From assembly GCA_020348445.1 (NCBI GenBank), contig CP070751.1:4844506-4908505 (forward strand): 64,000 nt of DNA, given 5' to 3'. This document shows, in pieces, positions 32,431 to 32,654 of this stretch. Source of the DNA: Thermoplasmata archaeon. Lineage in GTDB: Archaea; Thermoplasmatota; Thermoplasmata; GCA-020350865. A model generated the notes under the pieces. The model worked only from the letters and a program-made list of their open reading frames with translations, had not been told where the DNA came from and did not search any database. Numbering within the stretch: position 1 is the stretch's first letter; every line of letters begins with the position of its first letter. The translations under genes and the position numbers were made by a program.

Positions 32431-32654
32431 TTTATTGCCCCCCTATATTTCTCTCTGAGGTTCAGCCAAATGAATTGTCTAAAAGAAGAGAATAAGATAG
32501 TCTATCTTAATCAATTAGTTCTATAGAATGATTATCTTAGCTCACCTTTTTTCGCCAATTCGAAAGGTTCCCCTGGTTAACCAGATTGGTTTGTGGCTAT
32601 AAAAGCCTTGTTACAAGCAAAAAAACACCCTTTGGTGCCAAATTTAAGAAATCC
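32431..32654 (-). promoter_or_regulatory. Upstream motif, TATA box and ~140-nt 5' leader of the giant RTX gene; homologous to 43472-43695
   Basis: Minus strand: GGATTTCTTAAATT (32654-32641), TTTTATAGCCA (32604-32594), TTCTCTTCTTTT (32492-32481), TTTGGCTGA (32470-32462), then a G-rich RBS. The same blocks occur in the same order upstream of 43696. Confidence 0.7.
32493..32509. promoter_or_regulatory. Perfect 8-1-8 inverted repeat TAAGATAG-T-CTATCTTA in the giant-gene leader (possible operator)
   Basis: Direct reading of 32493-32509; a related half-site TATCTTAG lies at 32533-32540. Confidence 0.4.

Follow-up and report, generated by a model that had tools for sequence, protein, structure and literature searches.

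Two giant genes with N-terminal signal or anchor segments and otherwise unrelated products are each preceded, in the 64,000-nt stretch of Thermoplasmata DNA analysed here (the window), by a copy of the same sequence module. The evidence supports a genus-specific, portable expression module in which a BRE/TATA promoter is followed by a leader of about 150 nt whose last part is an A-rich linker leading into a strong SD and the start codon. That this family and its module are real is close to certain, and it is very probable that an RNA hairpin formed by the leader is under selection. The role of the hairpin is a more tentative matter: the preferred reading is a stabiliser of the message, or a gate that depends on the integrity of its 5′ end, and we put its probability at about 0.45.

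The module before the first gene (copy A) has the following features:

32641-32654, minus strand: −224 motif GGATTTCTTAAATT, found in copies A and B only and lying outside the family
32598-32604, minus strand: TATA box TTTTATA, with an A-rich BRE-like stretch immediately upstream
about 32574-32577, minus strand: predicted transcription start, placed from TATA spacing only
32428-32577, minus strand: leader RNA, a covariance-model match of 150 nt including the ATG (R2, 91.2 bits, E 1e-19; R3, 89.2 bits)
32570-32573, minus strand: predicted 5′ arm of helix P1, GGGG, SD-like (model alignment A6), with CCUC as its partner
32541-32561, minus strand: purine-rich 5′ arm, with P2 at 32556-32561 and P3 at 32541-32550 (in the predicted fold, GAAUUG with CAAUUC and AAAAGG.GAG with CUC.UCUUUU)
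32493-32539, minus strand: apical part, with P4 (UAAGAUA 32533-32539 with UAUCUUA 32493-32499) and a variable loop
32472-32490, minus strand: pyrimidine-rich 3′ arm, with the CTCTTCTTTT block at 32481-32490 (P3) and the P2 partner at 32472-32477
32457-32460, minus strand: predicted 3′ arm of P1, CCUC, anti-SD-like, the partner of GGGG
32438-32443, minus strand: SD GGGGGG, 7 nt before the ATG at 32428-32430
13393-32430, minus strand: passenger gene A, 6345 aa, with an N-terminal signal or anchor segment

The corresponding features of copy B, whose arm coordinates come from minimum-energy and centroid folds, are:

43472-43485, plus strand: −224 motif GGATTCGTTAAATT, the twin of the motif in copy A
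43516-43522, plus strand: TATA box TTTTATA, read in the sequence
about 43543-43546, plus strand: predicted transcription start
43546-43698, plus strand: leader RNA, a covariance-model match of 153 nt including the ATG (R2, 96.6 bits, E 3e-19; R3, 101 bits)
43546-43589, plus strand: purine-rich 5′ arm, with P1 at 43546-43551, P2 at 43555-43563 and 43568-43571, P3 at 43574-43584 and P4 at 43586-43589
43627-43669, plus strand: pyrimidine-rich 3′ arm, with P4 at 43627-43630, P3 at 43633-43643 (CTCTTCTTTTT), P2 at 43645-43648 and 43651-43660, and P1 at 43664-43669
43681-43686, plus strand: SD AGGAGG, 9 nt before the ATG at 43696-43698, with an A-rich unpaired linker upstream
43696-52440, plus strand: passenger gene B, 2914 aa, with a signal or anchor segment and NosD/beta-helix repeats, PKD and CARDB domains

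The 224-nt upstream regions of A (32431-32654, minus strand) and B (43472-43695, plus strand) align locally with a score of 39, compared with 10.6 ± 1.6 (maximum 18) in 1000 shuffles, a distance of 18 s.d. When 3000 pairs of upstream regions of this length were drawn at random from the genome, the score was 11.0 ± 4.3. Among the 1382 upstream regions of the genome, the two are reciprocal best matches. A preliminary description of this DNA had listed a series of shared blocks, and all of them were found at the offsets that it gave: GGATTNNTTAAATT at −224 in both copies and, in A and B respectively, TTTTATAGCCA at −174/−180, TTCTCTTCTTTT at −62/−65 and TTTGGCTGA at −40/−42, followed in each case by the G-rich ribosome-binding site. 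The pairing that it proposed between the purine block and CTCTTCTTTT is present in the predicted folds of both copies, where it constitutes helix P3, and the bodies of the two proteins are unrelated, as it had stated (best BLASTP E 0.018).

The two copies belong to a larger family. In their own genome, a single contig of 5.16 Mb with 41.5% G+C, BLASTN and iterated nhmmer recovered 13 copies with E values below 1e-13, to which covariance models added three more divergent ones, giving 16 at E ≤ 4e-4. Across five species of the genus the covariance models recover about 41 copies at E < 1e-3, and all four of the other species carry some. No member of the family was found in 146 other genomes of the class (one genome of a sister family and 145 further ones). 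Searches of the 64-kb window against Rfam 15 gave nothing at gathering thresholds, and ten leaders searched in E-value mode matched only MIR5298 (31 bits against the 70 required), MIR2086 and SCARNA7, all far below threshold; these are plant microRNA-precursor hairpins and a scaRNA. The leader thus bears out the proposal of an undescribed archaeal leader RNA, as well as the remark that no known riboswitch could be recognised, and it appears from these searches to be a genus-restricted RNA family uncatalogued in Rfam.

Searches aimed farther afield returned no additional members. A loose DNA pattern scan of metagenome contigs yielded at least 120 stretches, and none of the 80 loci searched fitted the model, giving only chance matches, a blank that carries no weight as evidence of absence. 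When genome contigs were searched at the protein level with the N-terminal part of B, only relatives of 30-35% identity from other lineages were found. One of them, from another member of the Thermoplasmata (L058), has its start codon closely behind a TATA-like stretch and is without such a leader; upstream of the other two, no long leader and no strong SD within 25 nt was seen.

The placement of the copies is uniform. All 16 in the home genome share one orientation with respect to the gene that follows, and in each the leader match ends at the start codon; the same holds for 14 of the 14 copies examined in relatives, and there is no convincing orphan copy. A MITE or other small mobile element was considered as the source of the repeats and rejected on these grounds. 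In one copy (c0489; L020:1-140, genome positions 489761-489900), the SD and ATG of the leader open a frame of just 24 codons, and a PKD-array protein with a signal segment begins 72 nt downstream in a different frame; an insertion or a frameshift could lie behind this, or the 24-codon frame could be a true upstream ORF.

The host genome has a peculiarity of its own: it is a single contig of 5.16 Mb and yet is scored as 81.7% complete by marker genes. Genomes of the genus span 2.3-5.2 Mb, compared with 1.0-2.3 Mb in other families of the class, and this is a lineage with unusually large genomes to which the marker sets fit poorly.

Similarity among the copies runs from the BRE/TATA box to the ATG, a module length of about 185-195 bp in which the BRE/TATA box and the region around the start are the best-aligned parts. 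Between orthologous genes of different species, the leaders are 61-79% identical, compared with 33-64% for DNA farther upstream and, in the same comparison, 47-72% for synonymous sites and 57-62% for the proteins. The leader is thus better conserved than its flanks and under purifying selection. This conservation begins about 30 nt upstream of the TATA box.

Neither outer element of the cassette sketched in the preliminary description is supported when the whole family is considered. The −224 'operator' GGATTNNTTAAATT is exact nowhere but in A and B: the remaining 14 copies lack it, and orthologues of these two genes (G001-G003) have not kept it; we dropped it from the family, and it may mark a recent shared duplication boundary or be a private site. 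Nor is the signal segment supported as part of the cassette. The N-terminal likeness of A and B, which that description had pointed out, lies at an unremarkable 80th percentile when leader-borne N-termini are compared with other signal-like N-termini of the genome, and homology stops at the start codon. The family as a whole has an N-terminal excess of 33.3 versus 28.5 identities in 75 nt, a difference confounded by crude start calls, and the three most similar leaders (82% identical) have unrelated N-termini downstream. What stands of the proposed reusable expression and export cassette is thus a promoter and a structured leader placed in front of different passengers.

A signal-like N-terminus was found in 15 of the 16 passengers in the home genome, compared with 24% of all crude genes, and in all 14 passengers of the relatives. 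The protein families involved are mutually unrelated: NosD/beta-helix proteins with PKD and CARDB domains, PKD arrays, FG-GAP, LamG with FIMAH, DUF1565, an RTX giant, an S8 subtilase and a 108-aa Gly/Pro-rich protein. The earlier suggestion of large surface proteins accordingly holds for surface or secreted character and not for size, given that passengers range from 108 to 6345 aa. The subtilase (L019; 3039975-3041324, minus strand of the genome) is the sole passenger without a recognisable signal, and its predicted start is TTG. Co-regulation of the genes that bear the module, which the preliminary description also raised, is something that we infer.

Protein A has no Pfam domain within its first 4000 aa, and its last third contains at least 11 RTX calcium-binding nonapeptide stretches. 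Divergent from gene A lies a MacB-type ABC pair (an ATPase of 235 aa and an FtsX/MacB permease of 1198 aa; 32801-37121, plus strand), and the giant RTX-like archaeal surface protein may be functionally paired with this MacB-type exporter. Otherwise the surroundings of the two modules and the interval separating them contain ordinary genes (DUF389, Toprim, roadblock/LC7, CPxCG zinc finger, isoaspartate methyltransferase and ribulose-phosphate epimerase). The FG-GAP passenger (L016; genome positions 1112555-1114099; 515 aa) is a singleton in its 90% cluster; it has no close relative among 5.8 billion proteins and no close orthologue that could supply further leaders, and its best relatives, 41-50% identical over the repeats, are mostly bacterial or haloarchaeal. 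The want of a close relative fits the joining of a native leader to a gene of different origin, and we regard the FG-GAP gene as a candidate for an acquired gene that was given such a leader.

In most copies, the conserved GGAGG is preceded, at a distance of 30-33 nt, by a TATA hexamer. This spacing, read against standard archaeal promoter geometry, puts the predicted start of transcription 1-3 nt before helix P1, so that the transcript would carry a leader of about 150 nt beginning 1-3 nt before GGAGG.

Several lines of evidence support folding of this leader into an RNA hairpin. First, all subgroup alignments give the same consensus, a single unbranched hairpin of about 120 nt with 0 branch points. 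Its 5′ arm is purine-rich (GGAGGGAG, AAGGGAA or AAGGAG, GGUGGAA, AGAAGAGG) and its 3′ arm is pyrimidine-rich (UCUUCUUUU, UUCCCUUU, CCUC). Most of the conserved columns fall within the arms, the T run and the SD, and conservation of the leader is highest in the T-rich block.

Second, over 29 leaders, in an alignment that was itself fitted to the covariance model, 78% of the cells in paired columns are paired; shifting the partners by 1-3 columns lowers this figure to 50-61%, and shuffling the columns lowers it to 67%. Covariation scores 0.384 in register and no more than 0.198 with shifted partners, and none of 500 shuffles reached the in-register value. P1 attains 83.5% pairing over the 29 leaders; at its second pair, AU and GC each occur in 10 of them.

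Third, the fold is favoured on the transcribed strand. The mean fold z-score over the 29 leaders is −2.0, and in 26 of them the sense strand folds more stably than its antisense counterpart (−32 versus −22 kcal/mol); for copy B the values are −41.1 and −25.0 kcal/mol. This asymmetry points to G-U pairs and hence to selection on the transcript and not on the DNA.

The individual folds are looser than the consensus. Consensus pairs recur exactly in 30% of cases in single-sequence folds and within 3 nt in 55%, and the arms, being purine and pyrimidine tracts of low complexity, can slip against each other and pair readily by composition. Copy A folds no better than its shuffles (z −0.07 and −0.34) and is not more stable than its antisense strand, and in its minimum-energy fold CCUC pairs with the SD instead of with the 5′ arm of P1. 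Copy B taken alone has a z-score of −1.28, which is not significant. For A and B, single-sequence thermodynamics is accordingly weak, and the informative quantities are the family mean and the strand asymmetry. A consensus of all 13 copies from MAFFT and RNAalifold gave no structure; subgroup folds and the covariance-model alignment were needed. P4 is only partly supported as a helix of the family, with 60% of its cells paired in fixed columns, and is retained as probable for A and B only.

Beyond the hairpin, the leader continues with an A-rich linker and then AGGAGG 7-9 nt before the ATG, and the 16S rRNA of the organism ends in ...GGAUCACCUCCU. This SD is predicted to be largely accessible: its mean pairing probability is 0.32, compared with 0.65 for the hairpin region, and is below 0.5 in 21 of the 29 leaders. 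In the other 8 it is mostly paired, and the SD of copy A has a predicted pairing of 66%. When the 5′ arm is blocked in silico, SD pairing rises to 0.64-0.77, the partners being the pyrimidine blocks of the 3′ arm; blocking only nt 1-12 or nt 13-24 raises it from 0.32 to 0.63-0.64 (Wilcoxon p ~1e-6). The 5′ arm is thus predicted to act as an SD mimic that keeps the anti-SD-like strand off the real SD, a behaviour that follows in part from composition; masking of the SD upon loss of the 5′ arm is expected for any pyrimidine tract near an SD and is no proof of a switch. An RNA thermometer of the fourU or ROSE type was rejected: the U-rich strand is taken up by the purine arm at the 5′ end, most default folds leave the SD unpaired, and only blocking of the 5′ arm brings it under cover.

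The 5′ arm also contains sequences resembling a ribosome-binding site in their own right. Words of the GGRGG type occupy leader positions 3-10 in most copies, and the 5′-terminal GGAGGGAG is complementary to the CCUCC of the 16S 3′ end. An ATG follows at leader positions 18-24, about 10 nt past the 5′ GGAGG, in 12 of the 29 leaders (43566-43568 in copy B) and is lacking in the other 17. The frames opened by these codons span 1-31 codons, and one further frame is open to the end of the leader. A conserved upstream reading frame was rejected in view of this incidence and of the varying lengths and frames; the leader ATG could matter in some copies, through a STAB-SD-like or mini-ORF effect. Copy B has, in addition, a minimal ATG-TAA frame at 43690-43695, between its SD and the real start codon.

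The arrangement suggests the following mechanism. With transcription starting 1-3 nt before GGAGG, the hairpin would close the extreme 5′ end of the mRNA. The purine 5′ arm, a row of SD-like words, would hold the anti-SD-like 3′ arm, leaving the true ribosome-binding site open. A hairpin in this position could shield the messages from decay at the 5′ end and so give high and uniform expression. Translation would moreover depend on an intact 5′ arm, as loss or occupation of that arm would free the 3′ arm to cover the SD. The genome encodes candidate decay enzymes, an aCPSF1-like protein and a putative 408-aa KH-less β-CASP nuclease; in Sulfolobus, members of the aCPSF2 group carry out RNA degradation from the 5′ end (PMC3792030). 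In the slpA S-layer mRNA, a 5′ stem-loop stabilises the message and the ribosome-binding site is exposed (PMC10221546), and leaders of ompA, papA, aprE and STAB-SD type are referenced in a further paper (PMC3997798).

The same three segments can be read as a regulatory switch, in which the 5′ SD mimic, the anti-SD-like pyrimidine arm and the true SD compete, or in which the leader serves as a docking site for an RNA-binding protein, a small RNA or the 30S subunit, and the whole set of surface proteins is toggled, for instance by the state of the envelope or of secretion. The occurrence of one leader before 16 genes for secreted proteins is regulon-like, and the doubling of predicted SD pairing upon blocking of nt 1-12 or 13-24, the complementarity of the 5′ GGAGGGAG to CCUCC and the pairing of the CCUC of copy A with its SD in the minimum-energy fold count in favour of such a switch. 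Against this, the partner factor is hypothetical, the SD is open by default in 21 of 29 leaders, the alternative pairing is a trivial outcome of composition, and no multi-helix junction or invariant unpaired block marks a pocket for a ligand or protein; a riboswitch was rejected on the same structural grounds, the fold being a single unbranched hairpin. We consider a switch unlikely, while giving it some weight. In a broader version, an archaeal 'surface-proteome regulon' would have the leader as its cis element: a dedicated factor, or the 30S subunit itself, would read the three-part switch and so gate the translation or the decay of all secreted-protein mRNAs with the module together, and newly acquired genes such as the FG-GAP gene would be enrolled by receiving a copy of the module. 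This is a speculative extension that we hold to be distinctly unlikely.

Conservation might instead operate at the DNA level only, with a strong promoter and promoter-proximal operators spread by duplication and an RNA fold that is incidental. The BRE/TATA box and the start region do align best, GGAGGGAG at the start site could be an operator overlapping the initiation site, and the single-sequence fold statistics are weak for several copies. But conservation extends 150 nt beyond the start site, to the ATG; pairing in register beats slid pairing; one P1 pair switches between AU and GC, with 10 leaders on each side; and selection on DNA would not yield a sense strand more stable than its complement by about 10 kcal/mol. 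We judge this account improbable.

The T-rich block invites another reading, as a transcription attenuator. Archaeal RNA polymerase terminates at oligo-T tracts, helped by aCPSF1, and the oligo-T run of the 3′ arm could accordingly be a site of premature termination modulated by pairing with the purine arm. The block is the most conserved part of the leader, the T run reaches 5-8 in 14 of the 29 leaders and an aCPSF1-like gene is present. However, the other 15 leaders have runs of at most 4 T (copy A has 4, and two leaders have only 2), and the run is accounted for by its pairing with A/G partners, in which AU and GU alternate. Attenuation is a quite improbable explanation of the element.

It is very improbable that the leader is an address label which, ahead of translation or independently of it, steers mRNAs for exported proteins to the membrane or the secretion apparatus: its exclusive link with signal-bearing passengers is suggestive, and nothing else speaks for it, whereas most of the signal-bearing genes of the genome (about 650 by a crude rule) are without the leader. 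Finally, the reading of the similarity of A and B as chance, or as low complexity of AT-rich intergenic regions, has an AT-rich context and nothing further in its favour and is already refuted by an alignment score 18 s.d. above shuffles, by family E values down to 1e-30 and by the single orientation of copies that are always at gene starts.

Protection of the message, or gating by its 5′ arm, remains our preferred reading of the hairpin. With about 41 members on unrelated passengers, the family is a set of natural variants of a single leader, from a genus of the Thermoplasmata about which little is known. If the hairpin stabilises or gates these messages, archaea would share the logic of 5′-end protection of bacterial ompA, aprE and slpA, and a promoter-leader unit would be movable as a module, recruiting genes into the surface proteome. 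In practice, the module marks out a candidate regulon of an uncultured organism and a compact expression element for archaeal hosts; if it is only a strong promoter with a passive leader, it is a matter of ordinary annotation.

Known systems resemble the module in different respects. In the vlp/vsp type of system in Mycoplasma, one promoter-and-leader cassette lies upstream of many variable surface-protein genes. In contrast to that arrangement, the copies here lose their homology at the ATG, where unrelated passengers begin, and neither a hypermutable repeat nor an invertible element was seen. With riboswitches and other cis-regulatory RNAs of Rfam 15, the leader shares a conserved, structured 5′ position before functionally coherent genes; it differs from them in having no Rfam family at threshold, no junction and no invariant unpaired core. 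Structured cis-acting leader RNAs described from Archaea are few, to our knowledge, and no paper that we found ties one to exported proteins.

The STAB-SD of cry3A from Bacillus thuringiensis (Agaisse and Lereclus 1996, cited in PMC3997798) has in common with the leader a GGAGG-like word near the 5′ end, far from the start codon and complementary to the 16S 3′ end. Here, in distinction, the word is predicted to be paired in P1, with covariation, and in 12 of 29 leaders it is followed some 10 nt on by an ATG.

The closest parallels are slpA of Lactobacillus, ompA and papA of Escherichia coli and aprE of Bacillus subtilis, which combine a long 5′ UTR on a surface or secreted gene with a 5′-terminal stem-loop and an exposed ribosome-binding site (PMC10221546; references in PMC3997798), an arrangement that is predicted for the leader too; aprE is a subtilase gene, as is one passenger here. 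Unlike these, the leader described here is archaeal; one homologous leader stands on at least 16 non-homologous genes and not one on each gene; and it is predicted to fold into one hairpin, about 120 nt long, with a purine arm and a pyrimidine arm. The decay enzymes differ as well, with β-CASP nucleases here in place of RNase E. The novelty of the element is that it is an archaeal, multi-copy leader, portable across unrelated genes, and kin to the known 5′ leaders of surface-protein mRNAs.
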